In this document: positions 20,468 through 32,955 of the stretch, one piece after another
How the letters are laid out: each line of letters starts with the position of its first letter
Numbering within the stretch: position 1 is the first letter of the stretch
Virus record (IMG/VR): IMGVR_UViG_3300034060_000856
Span: 1 to 64,000 of that record
Length of the DNA stretch: 64,000 nt
Strand: one strand, 5' to 3'
Origin: a virus
The notes under the pieces: generated by a model
Told to the model about the DNA's origin: nothing
What the model saw: only the letters and a program-made list of their open reading frames with translations
Database searches by the model: none
Position numbers and translations under genes: made by a program

Positions 20468-20971
20468 ATGAATATTAGACAATCCATAAAAAAAATTCTA
20501 AAAGAAGAATTTAACCGTGAATCTAAAATATTCTCGGCCGTTGAAAAATATGGTATTATAAAAACTTGTGGAATGGTTGGTGGCATCAATCAACTCGCCA
20601 GTATATTAAATGAAACACCGGAAGGACTACTTACAAAGTACTTGAGTAAAGAAACATTCTCAACCAACGACATAGAAAAAAACACTGGTGGTTATAACTT
20701 TAAATTTAAATTACAATTTGTAGAAAAATATAACGATTATTATAATTTTTTCTTTGTGATAGAAGAAGGAACTGTTGAATTAATTATGACCGATGATGAC
20801 ACTGAATATAATTTATTTGGTAACTATATTAGAGAACTAGAAAGTTGGTGGGAAATAAAATATGAAATAAAAGACATATTATATGATTTTGTTAAAGAAC
20901 TTAACAATAAAATAAAATTTGATGATATCACAGTTAATGATGTTGATTACACCTTCAAAGACAAAAGATAA
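20468..20971 (+). CDS. leader-bearing protein (MNIRQSIKKILKEE)
   Basis: leader. Confidence 0.8.
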   Translation: MNIRQSIKKILKEEFNRESKIFSAVEKYGIIKTCGMVGGINQLASILNETPEGLLTKYLSKETFSTNDIEKNTGGYNFKFKLQFVEKYNDYYNFFFVIEEGTVELIMTDDDTEYNLFGNYIRELESWWEIKYEIKDILYDFVKELNNKIKFDDITVNDVDYTFKDKR

Positions 20972-21318: not shown

Positions 21319-21645
21319 ATGCAAATTGTCCTTACAGAATCACAATATAATACACTAATAAGAAGATTAGATGACTTTGTTGTAATTGACAGACAGTTTA
21401 AATACCAGTTAAGACAAAAAATACCTTGTAATTTTACTGATTTTGAAGATTATTTTAATTTTGTTTCATATAGAACAGAAGATTATGTTACTAATAAATT
21501 AATAGAAAATAAAATAATTGAGTTTGATTTAGAATTATCAAATAAGATTAGAAGTGAGATTGAAAACTATATTAAGGATAATTTTTTAGAATACGCAAAA
21601 GAGTATTACGATTATTATAAAGAAAAAAACTGTCCGGAAGAATGA
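21319..21645 (+). CDS. leader + RR-family protein
   Basis: MQIVLTESQ; LIRR, PCNF. Confidence 0.8.
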   Translation: MQIVLTESQYNTLIRRLDDFVVIDRQFKYQLRQKIPCNFTDFEDYFNFVSYRTEDYVTNKLIENKIIEFDLELSNKIRSEIENYIKDNFLEYAKEYYDYYKEKNCPEE

Positions 21646-22004
21646 ACCTACAAGAGAACATAAGAAGAATATTAAAGGAAGAGGTAAATGTTCCTCCATA
21701 TATTAAAAGAAGATTGTATGTTGTTGATGAATACATTAGTGATTTAGATCCTGAAGATGTTTGTAGATATTGGGATGATAATCACGCTAAAGAATATGTA
21801 AACCAACATATGTCAGACATTGTTAGAAGTATTGTAGATTTTAGAATCCAAGTAAATGATGATGAATATACTGAAAAGTATGATGAAATATACGGTTCAT
21901 TAATTGATTTAGGGTACAGAGAAAAATTAGAAGATTTCTTCTACGAATCATTACAAAACTGTAACCCAAAACATAGGATGAGGTTTATGAAATCACAGCA
22001 TTGA
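21642..22004 (+). CDS. MNLQE leader + RR-family protein
   Basis: MNLQENIRRILKEE; IKRR. Confidence 0.8.
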   Translation: MNLQENIRRILKEEVNVPPYIKRRLYVVDEYISDLDPEDVCRYWDDNHAKEYVNQHMSDIVRSIVDFRIQVNDDEYTEKYDEIYGSLIDLGYREKLEDFFYESLQNCNPKHRMRFMKSQH

Positions 22005-22049
22005 CAATATGAATTAAAAGTGTTATAGTTTAACATAAAATTATAACAT

Positions 22050-22679
22050 ATGAACTTATTAGAATCGTTAGAGTGGAGATACGCCACCAAGAAAATGAAT
22101 GGGGACAAGATCCCACAGGATAAATTAGACAGAATACTTCAAGCAACAAGACTGGCACCAAGTTCATACGGATTAACACCGTATAATGTTATTGTTGTTG
22201 AGGACCAGAAACTAAAAGAGGAACTACAAGGAGCTTGTTACGGTCAAACACAGTTAACAGAATCATCGGCGGTTCTTGTATTTGCAACCTGGGATGATGT
22301 AACGGAAGACTCTGTTAATATCTATATCAATGAGATTGCAAGACAAAGAGAAATTCCTGTAGAATCATTAGAAGGAATGACAGGTATGATGAAGGGGTCA
22401 CTATCCAATATGACACAAGAACAAAAGATTTCCTGGGCACAAAGACAAGCATACATCGGTTTGGGGTTTGCATTAACAGCAGCAGCCACAGAAGAAGTAG
22501 ACTCAACACCAATGGAAGGATTTAATCCGCCAGCAGTAGATAAAATATTAGGATTACAGGAACACGGATTAATGTCTGTAGTTGTATTACCATTAGGATA
22601 TAGAGATAGTGAAAATGACTACCTTTCAAATGCTAAAAAAGTAAGATGGGAGGATAGTATGTTTTTTATTAGAAAATAA
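22050..22679 (+). CDS. NAD(P)H-dependent nitroreductase (NfsB-like)
   Basis: WRYATK, LAPSS.G..P, QAYI.LG, DSTPMEGF, LGYR, K.R. Confidence 0.93.
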   Translation: MNLLESLEWRYATKKMNGDKIPQDKLDRILQATRLAPSSYGLTPYNVIVVEDQKLKEELQGACYGQTQLTESSAVLVFATWDDVTEDSVNIYINEIARQREIPVESLEGMTGMMKGSLSNMTQEQKISWAQRQAYIGLGFALTAAATEEVDSTPMEGFNPPAVDKILGLQEHGLMSVVVLPLGYRDSENDYLSNAKKVRWEDSMFFIRK

Positions 22680-22694
22680 TTCATATCTTTGTGT

Positions 22695-22973
22695 ATGAAC
22701 AAATACGAAAGAGCATTAATTAGAAGATTAGAGTGGATTGATGAACAGGCCAAATCTGTTATTCCCCAACAATTTGACAGGTTTGATCATATGGGTGAAG
22801 AGTATTTTCTTAAAACAACAATTAATATAATTTTATTTAGGATTCGTAATATTGGTTTTATAACTCTAAATGATGGGAACCAGGAATATCACAGATCAGC
22901 CAGAAAATTTGTAACTGAAAGATATGAAAAAGAAATAAGGGAGTATTTTCACAACATAAAAAATAATGTATGA
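22695..22973 (+). CDS. RR-family protein, no leader
   Basis: LIRR...EIREYF; TATCTTTG upstream. Confidence 0.7.
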   Translation: MNKYERALIRRLEWIDEQAKSVIPQQFDRFDHMGEEYFLKTTINIILFRIRNIGFITLNDGNQEYHRSARKFVTERYEKEIREYFHNIKNNV

Positions 22974-23287
22974 AGCGCTCAAAGTTAGAACTTTCCTTAA
23001 TTAGACGATCCGAAACTATTTTTGAACAAATAGAGGAAGTTATGATGTCACTAAAAGATTCAAAAAGAGTACAAATAAATTCATCATCTCATTTTATGGA
23101 AATAGTTTCAAGAAGAGTTAGACCTTGGATTATCTGGGAATTAATGGATAATGGTTTTAAATTGGAAGATAATAACATTGCTACTTATGTTGAGTTTAAT
23201 AATTTTATTGAGGATTATCTTAAAGAAAGATATGGTCACGAAATGGATGGATTTTATAGATGGAGAATCAAAGACAGAACAAAATAA
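22970..23287 (+). CDS. RR-family protein
   Basis: LIRR...ERYG. Confidence 0.7.
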   Translation: MKRSKLELSLIRRSETIFEQIEEVMMSLKDSKRVQINSSSHFMEIVSRRVRPWIIWELMDNGFKLEDNNIATYVEFNNFIEDYLKERYGHEMDGFYRWRIKDRTK

Positions 23288-23292
23288 TCCAT

Positions 23293-23580
23293 ATGACTAA
23301 ACACGAAAAATCTATAATTAGAAGAACTGAAATTATTGATGAGGTTTTTTATGAACATTTAAATAACAATAGCTCAATAGATCTGATTAAAATAGTGAAC
23401 CTTAATTTTACTCGGTGGAGTAGAAACATAATTGCAACAACAACAAACGATATTATGTTACATAGTTTTTATGTTAAACCGTGGGAAAATGACGCAAAAG
23501 ATATTTTTAATGACATATATAGTTTCATAGAAAATAAATATAGATACGAACTTGAATTATTTTATAATATTGTAATATGA
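23293..23580 (+). CDS. RR-family protein
   Basis: MTKHEKSIIRR, 5' end shared with the next gene. Confidence 0.75.
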   Translation: MTKHEKSIIRRTEIIDEVFYEHLNNNSSIDLIKIVNLNFTRWSRNIIATTTNDIMLHSFYVKPWENDAKDIFNDIYSFIENKYRYELELFYNIVI

Positions 23581-23903
23581 CTAAACACGAAAAATCTATA
23601 ATTAGAAGAGCTGAAGTTATTGATGATGTTTTTCACAACTGGTTAAATTCTGGTGGTGCTAGAAACTTAGTAAGGTCACTTGATTATCATAGGTGGGAAG
23701 AAGGATTATTACACGAGGTATCATATCACATTATGGTAGAATCTCTAAAAATGAATATCTATGATATAGTTCTTAACCCAACAGATGAAATGAAGATAAT
23801 TCATTCAAATTTGTGCACCTTTATAAGAAATAGACACAGAGACAAAATGAGAGACAAACATAGATTCTATAAGAACAGATTTAGAGAAACACATTATAGT
23901 TAA
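23577..23903 (+). CDS. RR-family protein
   Basis: MTKHEKSIIRR. Confidence 0.75.
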   Translation: MTKHEKSIIRRAEVIDDVFHNWLNSGGARNLVRSLDYHRWEEGLLHEVSYHIMVESLKMNIYDIVLNPTDEMKIIHSNLCTFIRNRHRDKMRDKHRFYKNRFRETHYS

Positions 23904-23913
23904 AGATAATACA

Positions 23914-23944
23914 AAAAGGGAAATCAAAACTGGTTTCCCTTTTT
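23914..23944 (+). terminator. intrinsic terminator
   Basis: aaagggaaa/tttcccttt. Confidence 0.8.
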
Positions 23945-23966
23945 GTTTTCCATATATTTATACAAT

Positions 23967-24281
23967 ATGAACCTACAAGAATCCATAAGAAAAGTATTAA
24001 GGGAAGAACTAAAATCAAAATTCTTTCTTAGGAGAATTAAATTAAATGATGTTAAAAGAATACTTCCACTTAATGCAGAACAGGTGTATTATGAAACGGA
24101 AAGTTATGGACAGTTCAAATATGAATTAACTTTAAGAGCTGTAGAAACAATTATGTACAATGAGTATGATATGGGGTGGGAAGATCTACCACAACAAGAA
24201 GAAATAGATTTTGTAACAGATGTTTCAGATATGTTTGATGACAAAATTAAATCATTATACAACCACTACAAAGAAAGATAA
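23967..24281 (+). CDS. MNLQE leader + RR-family protein
   Basis: TATTTAT at 23955; leader. Confidence 0.8.
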   Translation: MNLQESIRKVLREELKSKFFLRRIKLNDVKRILPLNAEQVYYETESYGQFKYELTLRAVETIMYNEYDMGWEDLPQQEEIDFVTDVSDMFDDKIKSLYNHYKER

Positions 24282-24622
24282 TGAACCTACAAGAATCCAT
24301 AAGAAGAATATTAAGGGAGGATACTATTAATATTGCAACAATCCTACGCAGAGTTAATTCTGATGATTTAGAAAGAGAGTTTGAGGAGTCATTAGACATG
24401 GCATCAACGTGGTTTTTAAATTTGACTTTCAATGGATTGGCTGTGAATTTAAACAGATTTATAGATGTGGCAATTTCAAATACAATTGACGGAATCCACC
24501 ATGACTTATACAGTACATTACCGGAAGATGTCCAATGGTATGAAGATGTTAAAGAAACTTTAAAAGAATATTATAGAGATAGAATCAAGGTTACATATAA
24601 AAGATTAATGTCAGAACTATAA
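24281..24622 (+). CDS. MNLQE leader + RR-family protein
   Basis: leader; ILRRV...L..EF. Confidence 0.8.
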   Translation: MNLQESIRRILREDTINIATILRRVNSDDLEREFEESLDMASTWFLNLTFNGLAVNLNRFIDVAISNTIDGIHHDLYSTLPEDVQWYEDVKETLKEYYRDRIKVTYKRLMSEL

Positions 24623-24623
24623 T

Positions 24624-25355
24624 ATGAACCTACAAGAAAACATAAGAAGAATATTAAGGGAAGAATTTAAATTACCTAATTTGATTAGAAGAAGATTTAA
24701 TGAAGAAGAACTTGATAAATTAGTCTCCAATGTAGAGAGAACATTTGAGACACACAGAATTTCCCAACAACACAGAGAAGATGTAATAGATGCCGAAGTA
24801 GATGACTTTATTATGAATAGTGTTTATTATGGTGAATTTGAGGACTTTGACGATGAAATATACCAAGATATATATAATCTGTACAGAGAACCATTGGTTA
24901 ATTATATAAAATCAAAATTAGATATGAACCTACAAGAATCCATAAAAAAAGTATTAAGGGAAGAACTAAATAATAGGGGTGACTGTAATATTATGTATGT
25001 TCCAGAACAATTTAGTAAATTAGATAGGTTTTCAAATCTGTGGGATATGGTGGTTAATGAAATTGATGAATTGATAGAAGTTTCTCAATTAGAAAAAGAA
25101 TTATTACCAAAAGACATTACAGTATATTCAGTTCAAGAAAAGTTTGATATAGAATACGTAAAAAGAATGGACGATGAAAGATACAATAAATCTGATATTA
25201 GTTTGTTCAAATATAAAAATAAATTATACATAATAGATGGGCATCATAGATTATGTTATGATAGATTAAATAATAGAGATTCCTATGTTTATATCTTTGA
25301 TAAAGATGACAGTCAAATTGTTGATTGTATATTTTACGGTATAGGAGATTGTTAA
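24624..25355 (+). CDS. two fused cassettes: leader-RR module + leader-ParB/Srx-like domain
   Basis: second MNLQE leader in frame at 24924; YIIDGHHR. Confidence 0.8.
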   Translation: MNLQENIRRILREEFKLPNLIRRRFNEEELDKLVSNVERTFETHRISQQHREDVIDAEVDDFIMNSVYYGEFEDFDDEIYQDIYNLYREPLVNYIKSKLDMNLQESIKKVLREELNNRGDCNIMYVPEQFSKLDRFSNLWDMVVNEIDELIEVSQLEKELLPKDITVYSVQEKFDIEYVKRMDDERYNKSDISLFKYKNKLYIIDGHHRLCYDRLNNRDSYVYIFDKDDSQIVDCIFYGIGDC

Positions 25356-25356
25356 T

Positions 25357-25956
25357 ATGAACCTACAAGAATCCATAAGAAGAATATTAAGGGAAGAACT
25401 AGACTCTGATGATATTAAATCCAGACAAGACGAGGCTGCCGAGTTAATAAAACAATACGGTCACTATTCCTCACCTGACTTACGATATATCACTCGACCA
25501 CTATACGCATACATTGAGAACCAAAACTTTGGGAGATTAAAGGAATTGGGGGTTAAATATAGATTTACACCAATCGGTGAGATTAATTTAAATGGTGCAT
25601 TATCCAGGTTTATAAAAGAAAGGGGTGTCTTTAATGGTATTGGTGGTAATATAATAAGGTTATACAATGATGAACCGGTAACAAAGAGTGATATTTCAAG
25701 AATAAAAAGAAAGATCCAGGATATTATAAATGAGTTCAATACAAAGTTAAGAACAAACTATCAGATTGATGGTGTTGTTGGTGATAAGAGTTCCGACACA
25801 TTAAGAAATCAATTAAATCAAAAATTAACAGATGGTGAGTACAATATAGAACCAACATATAATAATATTGGTATAAAAATTTCAAGAGGGTTTGAGGATG
25901 AATATCTGGCAACCATACCAATGGATGAAATTGATAAACCACAGATGTTAGATTAA
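25357..25956 (+). CDS. MNLQE leader + unknown domain
   Basis: leader. Confidence 0.8.
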   Translation: MNLQESIRRILREELDSDDIKSRQDEAAELIKQYGHYSSPDLRYITRPLYAYIENQNFGRLKELGVKYRFTPIGEINLNGALSRFIKERGVFNGIGGNIIRLYNDEPVTKSDISRIKRKIQDIINEFNTKLRTNYQIDGVVGDKSSDTLRNQLNQKLTDGEYNIEPTYNNIGIKISRGFEDEYLATIPMDEIDKPQMLD

Positions 25957-26000: not shown

Positions 26001-26029
26001 AAAGGGAGACCTCACACGGTCTCCTTTTT
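26001..26029 (+). terminator. intrinsic terminator
   Basis: aaagggagacc/ggtctccttt. Confidence 0.8.
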
Positions 26030-27123: not shown

Positions 27124-27269
27124 GAGTTCATTTTCCCCACAGTGTCGTAGACCGACACGTTAGTGAAGTAGGGAATTAGTTGTTCAAAGTCCTGGCGACT
27201 TGCAAAGATCAAGATGAATCTGAAACAACCTAATTTCTAATCCCCCTCAAATGGGTGGGGAATTTTTTT
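27124..27269 (+). ncRNA. putative structured ~145-nt RNA
   Basis: TATTTAT at 27112, no ORF; stems ttccccac/gtggggaa, gtgtcg/cgacac, tagggaattagttgttca/tgaaacaacctaatttcta, aagtc/gactt; ends in a T run. Confidence 0.65.
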
Positions 27270-27913: not shown

Positions 27914-28080
27914 GCCCTACCCTATATGACCCCTATGACCGGGGGGCGTATGATATAACCTGGGGGCCCCCTCCCGTATCCCCCCCATATATGACATTTT
28001 GACAGGTAGATAGGGGGCTCAATCCCAAAAGCGAAATATTCGTAAAAAAATTTCTGGAAAAAATTTTGGGAAAATCCGGT
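27914..28080. other. GC homopolymer/palindrome island (candidate origin or packaging site)
   Basis: G6, gggggccccc, C7, then A/T tracts, in an AT-rich genome. Confidence 0.4.
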
Positions 28081-28124
28081 TTATGTTTCCCCCAATTATT
28101 ATAACGTGGGTATATTTATCTTAT

Positions 28125-28571: not shown

Positions 28572-28619
28572 GAAACACGACCCCCATTTTAAAATGATCC
28601 CAAATATCAAAAAAAAATT

Positions 28620-28651
28620 TTTGGAAAATTTCTAGGAAATTCCTATCTTTG
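28620..28651 (+). promoter_or_regulatory. Bacteroidota promoter
   Basis: TTTG-N20-TATCTTTG. Confidence 0.8.
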
Positions 28652-28657
28652 TACCCT

Positions 28658-29275
28658 ATGGAAAAAAAGACTTGTACAAAATGTGGTGAAGACAAACCAT
28701 TAACAGAATTTTATAGTGGTAGGACAAAGTGTAAATTTTGTTATAGCGAACAGAAAAAAGAATACAGAGAGAAAAATAAAGACGACATAAATGAAAAGAA
28801 TAAAACATATTATTATGAGAACCATAATAGGATGTTAGAAAAAAAGAAGAAGTATAGGGAAAATAATACCGAAACCATTAAATCCTATAATACGGAATAT
28901 TTTAAAACGTATGAAAAAAAGAGAAGTGAGAAAGATATTTTATACCGTATTGGGCGATCTTTACATAATTCAGTAAGAGGTTGTTTAAGACAGAAAAAAT
29001 TCCTTAAAAATTCTAGGACATATGAAATACTGGGTTGTACGTATGAAGAATTTAAAACCCATATTGAATTAAAATTTGAACCCTGGATGAGTTGGGATAA
29101 TTATGGGTTATATAACGGAAAGGAATGTTATGGTTGGGACTATGATCATATTATACCCAAATCTTCGGCAAAGTCGGAAGATGAACTAATTAAGTTATTT
29201 CATTATTCAAATCTCCAACCTTTATGTTCTTACGCAAATAGAGTTATTAAAAGAGACTCATTAGATTGGGAATAA
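28658..29275 (+). CDS. HNH endonuclease with N-terminal Zn finger
   Basis: CTKC..CKFC; W.NYG...DHIIP...HYSNLQPL...N. Confidence 0.88.
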   Translation: MEKKTCTKCGEDKPLTEFYSGRTKCKFCYSEQKKEYREKNKDDINEKNKTYYYENHNRMLEKKKKYRENNTETIKSYNTEYFKTYEKKRSEKDILYRIGRSLHNSVRGCLRQKKFLKNSRTYEILGCTYEEFKTHIELKFEPWMSWDNYGLYNGKECYGWDYDHIIPKSSAKSEDELIKLFHYSNLQPLCSYANRVIKRDSLDWE

Positions 29276-29310
29276 AACCAAAACACCCATTTTAAAAATT
29301 CTGAAAAAAT

Positions 29311-29341
29311 TTTGGTAATTTCAAGATTAATTATATCTTTG
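29311..29341 (+). promoter_or_regulatory. Bacteroidota promoter
   Basis: TTTG-N19-TATCTTTG. Confidence 0.8.
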
Positions 29342-29366
29342 TAATTCAAACAAAAATTTGTAATAT

Positions 29367-30425
29367 ATGAAAAAAGGAAAAAACCATAGTCCAAAAAGTT
29401 CGTATGCTTGGAAAGAGGATAAGACGATTAAAAAAGATTGTTGTTATGAATGTGGTTCAACTGAAGATATACAGTATCATCATATCATACCAGAAAGTAA
29501 AGGTGGGGGAATGACAATACCTTTATGTATTATATGTCACGGTAAAGTACACGATGTTGATTTTGTAAAAATGAAAAAATTACAAAAAGAAGGTATTGAG
29601 AGAGCAAAACAAAATGGGGTTTATAGTGAAACAATAGAAGAGTTTTTATCAAAACCAAGTCATTCTGAAGCTGTAAGATTAATAGATACTTGGCGTTTTG
29701 ATATTGATCAAATTTGTCAAATGGTAAATTTATCCAAAAGTACCGTTAAAAAAATATATAAAATTATGGATGATAATGATTTACGTACAAACAAACAAAG
29801 ATATTATCCATATGTTGAAGAAGTACTTGAAACGGAATATTCTATATTTTTTGACTGGGATGACCATAAAGAATTTGAAGAACGTTATAAAAACCAACAT
29901 AAATTTTGGTCAAATGATACATATATTGATAATGTAGTTGAATACCATATATGGTTAGAAGATTTATTACATTACTTTTATAAGAATTTGGTAGATATTG
30001 AGTCTGGTCTTATATTTGTTTTAGAGAATACTAACCCAAAAGATGAACATTTTAAATGTTTTGACGATTATCTTTCATATGTTTTAAATAAAACACTTAT
30101 AGAATATTATTATCTTTTAAAATCAAATCATAAAAACTACGCTTGGCGATTGTTTTGGGAACGTACTATAGACCTAGAGAACTTCCTTGGTCACTTCCCA
30201 AAAGATGATATGGAAGAAGCTGAAAAATATTTGCTTAAGTACCTTAATAAGAAATTTAAAGAAGAATATCTAATTGCTAAAGTTCATATAATACCACATT
30301 ATGACGATGATATAAGAAAAATATATGATAGTGGAACTTCAGGTAATACAATTAAACGTATAAGACCTGACACCTATAAGGATTACAACACCAAAAAGGA
30401 TGTGGATTGTGATGAACTTTGGTGA
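29367..30425 (+). CDS. HNH endonuclease + resolvase-type helix/HTH + unknown C-terminus
   Basis: CYECG..HHIIP..KGG...PLCIICHGKVH; KEGIERAK..G; LSKSTV.K. Confidence 0.82.
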   Translation: MKKGKNHSPKSSYAWKEDKTIKKDCCYECGSTEDIQYHHIIPESKGGGMTIPLCIICHGKVHDVDFVKMKKLQKEGIERAKQNGVYSETIEEFLSKPSHSEAVRLIDTWRFDIDQICQMVNLSKSTVKKIYKIMDDNDLRTNKQRYYPYVEEVLETEYSIFFDWDDHKEFEERYKNQHKFWSNDTYIDNVVEYHIWLEDLLHYFYKNLVDIESGLIFVLENTNPKDEHFKCFDDYLSYVLNKTLIEYYYLLKSNHKNYAWRLFWERTIDLENFLGHFPKDDMEEAEKYLLKYLNKKFKEEYLIAKVHIIPHYDDDIRKIYDSGTSGNTIKRIRPDTYKDYNTKKDVDCDELW

Positions 30426-30452
30426 AATAAAACCCAAATATCAAAAAACCCT

Positions 30453-30953
30453 ATGGAAAAAAAGACTTGTGTTAGTTGCAATGAAAATAAAATTCAAACT
30501 GAATTTAGAAATAGAAATACTTGTAAGACCTGTGAGAATAAACATAGGTATGAAAGAAAGAAGTTGCAAAGGATGGATCCCCTATATGATAAGAAGTGTA
30601 AGGAGTACGATGTTAAAAGAAAAAGAAAAAAGGAACATGAATGTCCCCTTACCAATTTTAAACAGATAATTAGACAAGCCGTTAGAAAATCATTTAAAAG
30701 AAATGGGTATACCAAAAAATCAAAAACGCATTTAATACTTGGGGATGACTGGGGTGTTGTTAAATTACATTTTGAATCTTTATTTCAACCGGGTATGTCC
30801 TGGGACAATTATGGGTTATGGGAAATTGATCACATAAAACCATTATCCCTTGCCAGTACCGAAGATGAGGTTATCAAGTTATGTGAATATAAAAACCTGC
30901 AACCCCTCTGGAAGGAAGATAATAATAAAAAGGGAACCTTTTATATTTTATAA
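30453..30953 (+). CDS. HNH endonuclease, paralogue of 28658
   Basis: MSWDNYG.WEIDHIKP...NLQPLW..DN..K. Confidence 0.88.
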   Translation: MEKKTCVSCNENKIQTEFRNRNTCKTCENKHRYERKKLQRMDPLYDKKCKEYDVKRKRKKEHECPLTNFKQIIRQAVRKSFKRNGYTKKSKTHLILGDDWGVVKLHFESLFQPGMSWDNYGLWEIDHIKPLSLASTEDEVIKLCEYKNLQPLWKEDNNKKGTFYIL

Positions 30954-30959
30954 AATACG

Positions 30960-30989
30960 ACCCCATTCCCAATAAGAGTGGGGTTTTTT
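30960..30989 (+). terminator. intrinsic terminator
   Basis: ccccattc/gagtgggg plus T run. Confidence 0.85.
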
Positions 30990-31000
30990 ATTTATTGATA

Positions 31001-31012
31001 TATTTATAAATA
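31001..31012 (+). promoter_or_regulatory. putative phage late promoter (TATTTAT; here TATTTATAAATA), representative of >25 sites
   Basis: recurs 5-25 nt upstream of ATGs on both strands (e.g. 6541, 23955, 27112, 31397, 35384). Confidence 0.75.
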
Positions 31013-31021
31013 AAAAATAAT

Positions 31022-31378
31022 ATGAAAAAAATTATAAAACTAACAGAATCAGATCTTACAAGAATTGTTAAACGTGTAATGAATGAAGACGAAGATTTTG
31101 ATTCTTTAGTAAAAAAAGTTTTTGGTAAAAATACTCCAGATGTTTCTAAAGTTAATAATAAATATGAAATGACTGAAGATTATTCAGATAGAAAGGGTGA
31201 TTTGTACTCAAGTATTAATAGAATAATTGACGGTGAATTTAATGATGTTGACCCATCTGAAATTGTTGATGTGTTGAGTAACATATTAGATCATCATAAA
31301 AGTCAATCATATAGACGTAAAAATAACACTAGGGGTATTAGCTCTGATGAGGTGCTTAGAAATTTTAGTAGACGTTAA
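31022..31378 (+). CDS. leader-bearing protein (MKKIIKLTESDLTRIVKRV.NE)
   Basis: leader. Confidence 0.85.
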   Translation: MKKIIKLTESDLTRIVKRVMNEDEDFDSLVKKVFGKNTPDVSKVNNKYEMTEDYSDRKGDLYSSINRIIDGEFNDVDPSEIVDVLSNILDHHKSQSYRRKNNTRGISSDEVLRNFSRR

Positions 31379-31414
31379 TTTTAAAATAAATCAATATATT
31401 TATAAATAAAAAAT

Positions 31415-32430: not shown

Positions 32431-32955
32431 ATGAAAATCATTATTACCGAAGAACAACGTGAATATATTTCAGAAATGATTAAACTTAACATTAAGGTTG
32501 GGGATGTAATTATGGGTGGTAAATTTAAGAACAAGAAAGTTGTTGTTAAAACCATTGGTAAAAATGAAAAGGGGGATATTACAATTAATGGAAAACCATT
32601 ATTAAGGTTTAGATTAATAAAGGAAAATATAATGTCCGTATCTCGGCGTAAAATTATATGGTTACTTAGAAGATTGGGTGACCCAGAAATTAATGATTTA
32701 TTAAAATCTATCGTTGATGAATCTTTTGACTATAGTGATCCTTGTGACTACGAAACTTATGATAGTTATGAGTTTGAGATTGCAAATAATAGTACAATAA
32801 CATTTATTAATTCATACATTGAACTTTATGGTGAAGAACATTTTGATTCTACCGAACTTGAGGAGTTTGTTCATAAATTAATCATTAGTAAGTATAATTT
32901 CAAAATTCTACGAGAATATAGGGATCGTGAATGTGAGGATGAATCAGATTATTAA
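32431..32955 (+). CDS. leader + beta module (IKVGD...GGKFKNK) + RR module
   Basis: modules joined at ISE and IKE. Confidence 0.8.
   Translation: MKIIITEEQREYISEMIKLNIKVGDVIMGGKFKNKKVVVKTIGKNEKGDITINGKPLLRFRLIKENIMSVSRRKIIWLLRRLGDPEINDLLKSIVDESFDYSDPCDYETYDSYEFEIANNSTITFINSYIELYGEEHFDSTELEEFVHKLIISKYNFKILREYRDRECEDESDY

Follow-up and report, generated by a model that had tools for sequence, protein, structure and literature searches.

The 64,000-nucleotide stretch considered here (the window; positions 1 to 64,000 of the IMG/VR virus record IMGVR_UViG_3300034060_000856, which spans 98,693 bp as a whole and is labelled G000) contains a head-to-tail array of small genes without intergenic space, all of which share a common 41-bp coding start, here called the leader. 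Dozens of related lake jumbo phages, which encode bS21, infect Bacteroidota and have T4-type head genes, carry this leader DNA in their arrays nearly base for base, and it is at the leader that the arrays gain, lose, replace, reorder and fuse cassettes. Taking the evidence together, we consider it likely that the shared coding leader serves as an exchange point for homologous recombination and that the peptide it encodes is probably a protein tag.

The leader array and the exchange of its cassettes

Six copies of the leader are present in the window, all on the + strand, at 21642, 23967, 24281, 24624, 24924 and 25357 (cassettes 1, A, B, C, D and E, respectively; Table 1). In a window search each of them matched a degenerate 41-nt pattern with 0 mismatches; 0 matches are expected from 100 shuffles of the sequence, and a search of the whole 98.7-kb record returned no copies beyond the six. 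The leader translates as MNLQE(S/N)I(R/K)(R/K)(I/V)L(R/K)E(E/D), in short MNLQE(S/N)IRRILREE. Every copy opens an open reading frame (ORF) except that at 24924, which lies in frame within ORF 24624-25355 and thus forms part of a fusion (C=D). Spacing to the upstream gene consists of a 4-nt ATGA overlap (21642), a 1-nt overlap (24281) or a 1-nt spacer (24624 and 25357), while the copy at 23967 instead follows a short promoter-like spacer. The initial annotation of the window had already reported the six positions, the abutment of the genes and the in-frame fused copy, and all three were recovered.

Among relatives, the leader DNA pattern occurs in 55 stretches on about 45 IMG/VR contigs, and across all fetched loci 137 non-redundant ORFs, distributed over about 55 related contigs, start with the leader. 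Genomes carry from 1 to 9 copies, grouped in 1-2 loci. In slightly more than half of the 137 cases (52%), the leader begins between -4 and +1 nt from the stop codon of the upstream ORF, and four leaders are fused in frame. A limited literature search found no paper that describes the leader.

A comparison of relatives had been proposed in the initial annotation as a check on the idea that the leader is a recombination handle, and it bears out the proposed outcome: cassettes shuffle at the leader, their number, order and fusion state vary, and breakpoints fall inside the repeat. In the following, L-numbers and G-numbers denote related contigs or loci, and P-numbers denote public proteins or clusters. 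The closest complete relative is L007, located on a 257-kb contig; its remaining shared genes show 68-80% DNA identity. Its flanks and two backbone genes are shared with the window, but its array runs ...E-A-D'-solo leader as opposed to A-B-C=D-E, and three leader cassettes sit between the orthologs of backbone genes 23293 and 23577. Homology in the A block (89.6%) covers A and the next leader and ends at the last base of that leader. At the position that E occupies in the window, L007 shows a leader, an immediate stop and then the shared downstream flank; E is found upstream of A in this phage, and it is fused to C in L083 and P0027-P0031. Cassette B is missing from both L007 and L087.

Solo leaders of this kind, in which a complete leader is followed directly by a stop, were seen at L007:11492-11535 (GAA to TAA) and at G005:C1:31531-31571. 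They appear to be remnants of deleted cassettes.

The strong crossover cases are two specific ones, namely D compared with L028, and L083. Over 24922-25397, cassette D is 94.5-98.9% identical to L028 and L016, whereas the remaining genes that those contigs share with the window reach 68-80%. In the comparison with L028 the left breakpoint lies inside the leader of D, the first two thirds of which contain six differences before near-identity begins, and the right breakpoint is the last base of the leader of E. This pattern suggests that D was recently exchanged. D is free-standing in L028, behind a terminator and a promoter-like spacer that resembles, in alignment, the one ahead of cassette A, and the D cassette at L028:2103-2495 carries an 83-nt internal deletion (window 25141-25223) that shortens the ORF to 80-86 aa. 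The metagenome contig L083, for its part, contains C, one leader and E, with D absent: its bases 1-326 correspond to window 24643-24968 at 95% and its bases 280-881 to 25355-25956 at 93%, the overlap being the leader. A three-way alignment places the switch inside the 41 nt.

Other contigs add further arrangements. L083, L085 and L086 have additional leader cassettes between E and the downstream flank; in L087 an A-like module immediately precedes C, and C in turn is fused to a different payload. L088 and the window are collinear along F86-A-B-C (90%). The same modularity is found in public proteins, where identities refer to the window: C=D is represented by five clusters (243-248 aa, 90-100% identity), C=E by four (299 aa; C 93-95%, E 91-93%), D alone by many (143 aa, 80-96%) and E alone by several (199 aa, 83-92%). 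In this set D is also fused to other modules of the RR family described below, and E also stands behind non-leader N-termini. In addition, 91 of 421 ends of high-scoring segment pairs (HSPs; 22%) fall within 12 nt of a leader, a zone that makes up 1.9% of the sequence; this count, made on HSPs of >=88% identity between loci sharing <25% of their length, is descriptive, the pairs not being independent and alignment ends being drawn to conserved islands.

With regard to the mechanism, the initial annotation saw no integrase, and indeed neither tyrosine (PF00589) nor serine (PF00239) recombinases were detected in this record or in four complete relatives, while a weak RecA/UvsX-like ORF is present in 4/4 complete relatives. 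Folding of the six copies revealed no hairpin or conserved structure in the leader, and crossover positions within it differ between the D-L028 and the L083 case. Variable crossover positions in a repeat without a hairpin point to homologous rather than site-specific exchange. We infer that the 41-bp repeat is acted on by general homologous recombination or template switching rather than by a site-specific recombinase. Within one genome, cassettes would be deleted or duplicated when direct repeats recombine unequally, and between co-infecting relatives they would be swapped. Because the crossover would lie inside an in-frame coding leader, every product would keep an intact start and tag; if the gene ahead of the leader has no stop codon, the product would be an in-frame fusion like C=D or C=E. 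Both outcomes, complete tagged ORFs and in-frame fusions, are present.

Payloads and a predicted capsid-targeting peptide

The record is rated 34% complete by CheckV. Genes in the window include a phage lysozyme with LysM, an amidase, a thymidylate synthase and a GMP reductase. Beyond the window end lies a T4-type prohead protease (Peptidase_S77, above cut-off) at 96049-96474 (+), and beside it, on the opposite strand, a gene for the ribosomal protein bS21 at 95165-95320 (-). With bS21 adjacent to the T4-type prohead protease, the phage falls into the clade of freshwater Bacteroidetes-infecting bS21 jumbo phages, which is defined by this bS21 context (Chen et al., 2022, PMC9723584). Complete relatives measure 257-321 kb, and all sequence-bearing runs are lake or freshwater metagenomes. 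No match was found among INPHARED phage records, either by blastn of the array or by tblastn of one large window protein.

The initial annotation described six different payloads behind the leader. This holds for D and E, which are unrelated to the rest and to each other, but not for the other four, which are diverged paralogs of one family. The bodies at 21642, 23967, 24281 and 24624 (N-terminal half) are 20-31% identical and belong to one helical family of ~90-105 aa, the RR family, in which a second conserved motif (hydrophobic-RR) directly follows the leader; the untagged genes at 22689-23903 are members as well. When the 137 leader ORFs were clustered by BLAST with the leader removed, 85 fell into the RR supercluster and the remainder into about 33 others, so that about 34 payload superclusters stand behind one N-terminal peptide.

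Pfam and PHROGs gave nothing significant for the tagged proteins of the window. In an AlphaFold (AF2) model of the RR module, with an overall predicted local distance difference test score (pLDDT) of 84, residues 21-104 form a confident helical bundle (pLDDT 82-98), and the leader is the low-confidence part (pLDDT 54-64); a comparison of this fold with the PDB produced no match with E below 2. The fold model of D is unusable (pLDDT 37), and profile searches of D and E against PDB sequences found no match. An Atlas search returned nothing for E and a weak ParB/Srx-like resemblance for D, which is a lead only. Several tagged proteins of the relatives are effector-like. The payloads there include ADP-ribosyltransferases of the ART-PolyVal type (L021:8821-9297, 48 bits against a cut-off of 31, and L056:7419-7901), a C45/AAT-type peptidase (L007:3932) and a protein with a peptidoglycan-hydrolase-like domain that is common to virion-associated endolysin and tape-measure profiles (L027:6680). 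The tagged ART-PolyVal proteins parallel T4 Alt, a head-loaded protein trimmed by gp21.

The most likely role for the leader peptide, to which we assign about an even chance of being correct, is that of a capsid-targeting propeptide. Its N-terminal helix would bring the cargo into the prohead core and would be cut off after L11-x-E13 by the gp21-type prohead protease, and the array would constitute a changeable kit of proteins that are injected with the DNA. In 55 diverse tagged proteins, M1, N2, I7, L11 and E13 are invariant and residue 14 is variable. L-x-E is a cut motif of the T4 gp21 protease family, and gp21 cuts Alt at ITE-6 and LTE-619 (PMC5694885); in the T4 capsid-targeting sequence (CTS), residues 8 and 10 are the determinants of processing (PMC9026906). 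Peptidase_S77 is present in this record and in 4/4 complete relatives. The invariant L11-x-E13 thus coincides with the cut motif of an encoded T4-type prohead protease, which makes a capsid-targeting tag likely. A different leader, carried by homologs of D, still ends in I-T-E.

This second leader type was noticed on the D homologs P0020-P0022 and P0025 (~50% identical), which carry MNLQEQISR(M/I)..MG.I(T/N)E; it has the same beginning as the main leader and likewise ends in I-x-E. The gene after the protease was considered as a tagged scaffold; it has an LTESDL-type leader, but the sole match of its body is a PHROG of unknown function, and it was not used.

Conservation of the leader DNA and its possible causes

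The initial annotation had also noted conservation at synonymous sites. In order to avoid ascertainment bias, a codon-blind search of IMG/VR was performed with a fully back-translated pattern that fixes amino acids only, and in the 59 distinct copies thus obtained rare codons are nearly fixed. AAC encodes N2 in 56/59 leaders (27% genome-wide), CTA encodes L3 in 48/59 (10%), TCC is used for 35/36 serines at S6 (5%), ATA encodes I7 and I10 in 57/59 and 59/59, respectively (34%), and AGG encodes R12 in 56/59 (14%). Information content climbs at the ATG and is back to background at +41, which delimits a sharp-edged conserved block, and the profile shows nothing conserved upstream of the ATG. The LTESDL and IIITE N-terminal leader families of the same phages, which serve as an internal control, vary ordinarily at synonymous sites. 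The further 5' sharings listed in the initial annotation, 23293/23577, 31022/31415 and 32431/32969, exist at 86-89% identity; they are local pairs, and their leader types vary ordinarily at synonymous sites throughout the clade.

The suggested comparison of leaders and payloads gave, between orthologous cassettes, synonymous differences (the fraction of identical residues that use different codons) of 0.00-0.14 in the leader versus 0.22-0.31 in the payload. Leader copies show 4.69 differences within a genome versus 5.33 between genomes (4/500 permutations). Strong within-genome concerted evolution of the leaders was rejected in view of this small gap, and simple concerted evolution is therefore not the main cause of their conservation. 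The near-fixed rare codons could stem from the recombinational spread of one master sequence, from selection for uninterrupted homology or from an added constraint at the mRNA level. We speculate, with considerable doubt, that the 41-bp leader is a selected, recombinase-free and self-framing exchange site that opens one shared, clade-wide pool of capsid-delivered effector genes, the tag being both protein address and gene docking site. Its nucleotides would then be held constant since uninterrupted identity would let any phage of the clade take up a tagged cassette in frame from a co-infecting relative.

Alternatively, the 41 nt might be conserved as mRNA, either as a translation-initiation or regulatory element for the Shine-Dalgarno-less ribosomes of Bacteroidota (possibly remodelled by bS21) or as a RegA-like repressor site, with recombination being incidental. 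Rare codons are fixed over about 45 contigs, yet homogenisation within genomes is weak, and the starts that abut a previous stop leave most cassettes without a 5' untranslated region of their own, such that initiation must rely on the first codons. Compared with shuffles, folding of the six copies is also slightly weaker (z +0.24 to +1.29), and the phage encodes bS21, which has been proposed to favour phage transcripts (Chen et al., 2022, PMC9723584). However, no individual z-score is significant, there is no conserved structure, and the record contains no antisense partner of 12 nt or more. Other families in the same phages that abut equally or bear leaders lack codon fixation, and fused internal copies that are no longer starts (24924, L007 7874) keep the same codons. 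The documented crossovers would be left unexplained and an mRNA function could only coexist with them; we regard this explanation as rather unlikely. A simpler one, that the array is an ordinary tandem paralog family in which the leader is the first helix of the RR domain and cassettes undergo normal duplication and deletion, the leader having neither a tag function nor a special part in exchange, draws on the large RR supercluster, on the four of six window payloads that align as one family with its second conserved motif and on the untagged RR genes that adjoin the array. It would not account for the about 33 further superclusters that share the leader (among them the ART-PolyVal, C45-type peptidase and peptidoglycan-hydrolase-like proteins as well as D and E), nor for nucleotide fixation next to paralog bodies that are 20-31% identical. 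Furthermore, it is the leader that packs poorly in the AF2 model, D payloads also occur with a different leader and E payloads with non-leader N-termini, which together render this account improbable.

A dedicated site-specific system of the integron or homing type, in which an unrecognised recombinase or nuclease, e.g. a nearby HNH endonuclease, acts on the 41 bp, would fit the sharp edges and clade-wide occurrence of the block, and three HNH-type genes, one with weak HNH Pfam hits, are located 2.7-5 kb downstream (28649-30953). Against such a system stand the absence of tyrosine and serine recombinases in five genomes, the lack of an inverted repeat or foldable attC-like structure and the fact that arrays in relatives are not consistently beside HNH genes; crossover points, in turn, vary within the leader as expected for homologous exchange. 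We therefore consider this possibility very improbable. Least credible of all is an artefact, whereby assemblers crossed between co-occurring phages at the 41-nt repeat and created chimeric cassette orders. The leader is certainly common to many co-occurring genomes, the depth of leader bins reaches up to about 40 times that of the flanks, and contigs built with k=31 break at every leader. The architectures nevertheless reappear in sequences of different origin that are 4-10% apart (five clusters of C=D at 90-100% and four of C=E at 91-95%), two independent contigs (X1 record 6 and X4 record 30) span B-C-D with no mismatch, and L088 supports the order in the window. A 41-nt repeat is also shorter than the large k-mers and the reads customary in such assemblies.

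Several points weigh against our preferred reading, that of a coding leader which is exchanged by homologous recombination and probably acts as a tag. Exchange is inferred from its products, and 41 bp is short for efficient homologous recombination. That HSP ends cluster at leaders is to some degree inherent in the method, because homology between diverged phages is detectable only where the sequence is conserved. Logan contigs (k=31) break at leaders, and their skip and go-back joints, with sides of 22-44 nt, may stem from other phages; this includes the go-back joints with 31-44-nt sides, which are a candidate signal of mini-circles, and none of these joints is counted as support. One paralog family accounts for 85 of the 137 payloads, so that the pattern is in part the ordinary expansion of a family. 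The weakness of concerted evolution leaves nucleotide-level selection as a real alternative. As to the tag, its role is predicted, and L-x-E is a short motif in Glu-rich proteins; the likeness to the T4 CTS is one of features, peptides of 10-14 aa being too short for a meaningful test of homology.

Relation to known systems and further features of the region

The initial annotation compared the locus with the polymorphic internal protein (IP) locus of T-even phages, and this comparison is apt given the gp21-type protease and the invariant L-x-E of the leader. Like the polymorphic T-even IP loci with their CTS (Repoila et al., 1994, via PMC2839356; PMC3012670; PMC9026906), the present system combines unrelated small proteins with a short N-terminal peptide that ends at a gp21-type (L/I)xE site, one or two hyperplastic loci whose content differs among close relatives, and a protease of the gp21 family. 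In contrast to the CTS with its 10 aa, the present leader has 14, its rare codons are near-fixed across the clade, and in-frame fusions are common. Shuffling of the IP loci is ascribed to intergenic promoter and stem-loop elements (PMC2839356), whereas here it takes place at tag-coding DNA between abutting genes; packaging and cleavage are, in the present case, predicted from sequence.

The promoter-early stem-loop (PeSL) cassettes of T4-type phages (Arbiol et al., 2010, PMC2839356; Comeau et al., 2014, PMC4122927) offer a second parallel. There, too, ORFan cassettes of hyperplastic regions are bordered by short conserved repeats, relatives differ by indels and replacements that break within the repeat, and exchange proceeds without a dedicated recombinase. 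PeSLs, however, are non-coding promoter-terminator units, while the leader represents the first 41 coding bases, lies inside the 5' end of the gene and has no hairpin, such that exchanges are automatically in frame and can fuse genes. Mini-circles have been shown for PeSL cassettes, while exchange here is read from contig and protein sequences. What is new, then, is T4-type modular shuffling in which the homology is provided by the coding sequence of a protein tag and not by a non-coding unit. Among jumbo phages, the phiKZ-like ejection or inner-body proteins are likewise paralogous head cargo with an N-terminal propeptide cut by a gp21-related protease; in SPN3US, gp53 and gp54 agree in all of their first 15 residues, and the prohead protease processes both (PMC5694885). 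Their protease belongs to family S80, though, the cut motif is A/S/G-x-E, paralogs are few, and neither a DNA-level repeat nor cassette exchange at the propeptide is reported for them.

Integron arrays resemble the locus in that unidirectional, promoterless and tightly packed cassettes vary in content between relatives. The locus nonetheless fails the defining integron tests: an IntI-type tyrosine recombinase is absent from the record and the four complete relatives, a folded site resembling attC is lacking, the repeat occupies the 5' coding end instead of the 3' end, and crossover positions vary within it. Another parallel is offered by the orphan modules of contact-dependent inhibition (CDI) and Rhs polymorphic toxins, where a conserved coding motif ahead of a variable C-terminal domain supplies the homology for swapping. 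In both cases, conserved coding DNA before variable modules is a recombination point that brings a new module in frame. The CDI/Rhs systems differ in being bacterial and in consisting of a large delivery protein with a C-terminal toxin and an immunity gene, without tandem genes that have their own starts.

Hyperplastic regions hold most unknown genes of phages and probably most of their anti-defence genes, and their turnover is known in outline only, from coliphage PeSLs and IP loci. In the leader, a 41-bp unit unites the start codon with a probable capsid address and a recombination point, which would turn each exchange into an expressible and correctly tagged gene. The known cargo repertoire extends from ADP-ribosyltransferases, peptidases and hydrolases to many proteins of unknown function, and the leader sequence can be used as bait to retrieve the exchangeable cargo of an abundant freshwater phage clade from metagenomes. 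Should the tag indeed load heads, it would represent a second, independent natural CTS system and could serve to package foreign proteins in phages of Bacteroidota.

The features of the array and its immediate surroundings are compiled in Table 1.

Table 1. Leader cassettes and adjoining features of the array, in window coordinates.
Feature	Coordinates	Strand	Remarks
Gene with diverged leader variant (MNIRQSIKKILKEE) at upstream edge of locus	20468..20971	+	orthologs L038/L011/L030 36% identical
Cassette 1: leader 21642-21682 and RR-family helical module, 120 aa	21642..22004	+	ATGA overlap with upstream gene
Untagged nitroreductase gene within locus	22050..22679	+	L056 ortholog (74% aa) ends a leader array
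Four untagged RR-family genes (22689, 22970, 23293, 23577)	22689..23903	+	last two are backbone genes common to L007
Short spacer with TATTTAT promoter-like motif before cassette A	23940..23966	+	read from alignment; putative promoter
Cassette A: leader 23967-24007 and RR module, 104 aa	23967..24281	+	L007 ortholog 85% aa, other neighbours
Cassette B: leader 24281-24321 and RR module, 113 aa	24281..24622	+	best relative L038 (66% aa)
Cassette C: leader 24624-24664 and RR module, 100 aa	24624..24923	+	without stop codon, reads in frame into D
Cassette D: internal leader 24924-24964 and unrelated 128-aa payload with IIDGHHR motif	24924..25355	+	
Cassette E: leader 25357-25397 and unrelated 185-aa payload	25357..25956	+	
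Terminator-like GC-rich hairpin and T-run closing the array	26004..26029	+	starts downstream flank conserved in L007, L083, L086

A number of minor observations concern the region downstream of the array. The 174-aa ORF at 32431-32955 appears to combine two modules that form separate genes elsewhere: its residues 1-63 match a 64-aa ORF of L038 at 82%, and its residues 68-171 match ORFs of 119-120 aa in L025, L055 and L032 at 33%. Genes with LTESDL-type leaders (spacers 30960-31021, 31375-31414 and similar ones) are preceded by conserved intergenic blocks in which a G-rich hairpin is followed by a T-run and an AT-rich region. The blocks, which many relatives share at 75-86%, look like terminator-promoter units of the PeSL type. 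A 40-nt direct repeat (68-70% identity) occurs at 28048-28087, 28614-28653 and 29304-29343, upstream of three successive genes, the middle one of which has weak HNH hits, while the other two are paralogs with Cys-rich N-termini. Finally, at 27141, contigs in 4/4 lake metagenome runs are without 26 nt that are present in the window, which fits a small strain-specific insertion.

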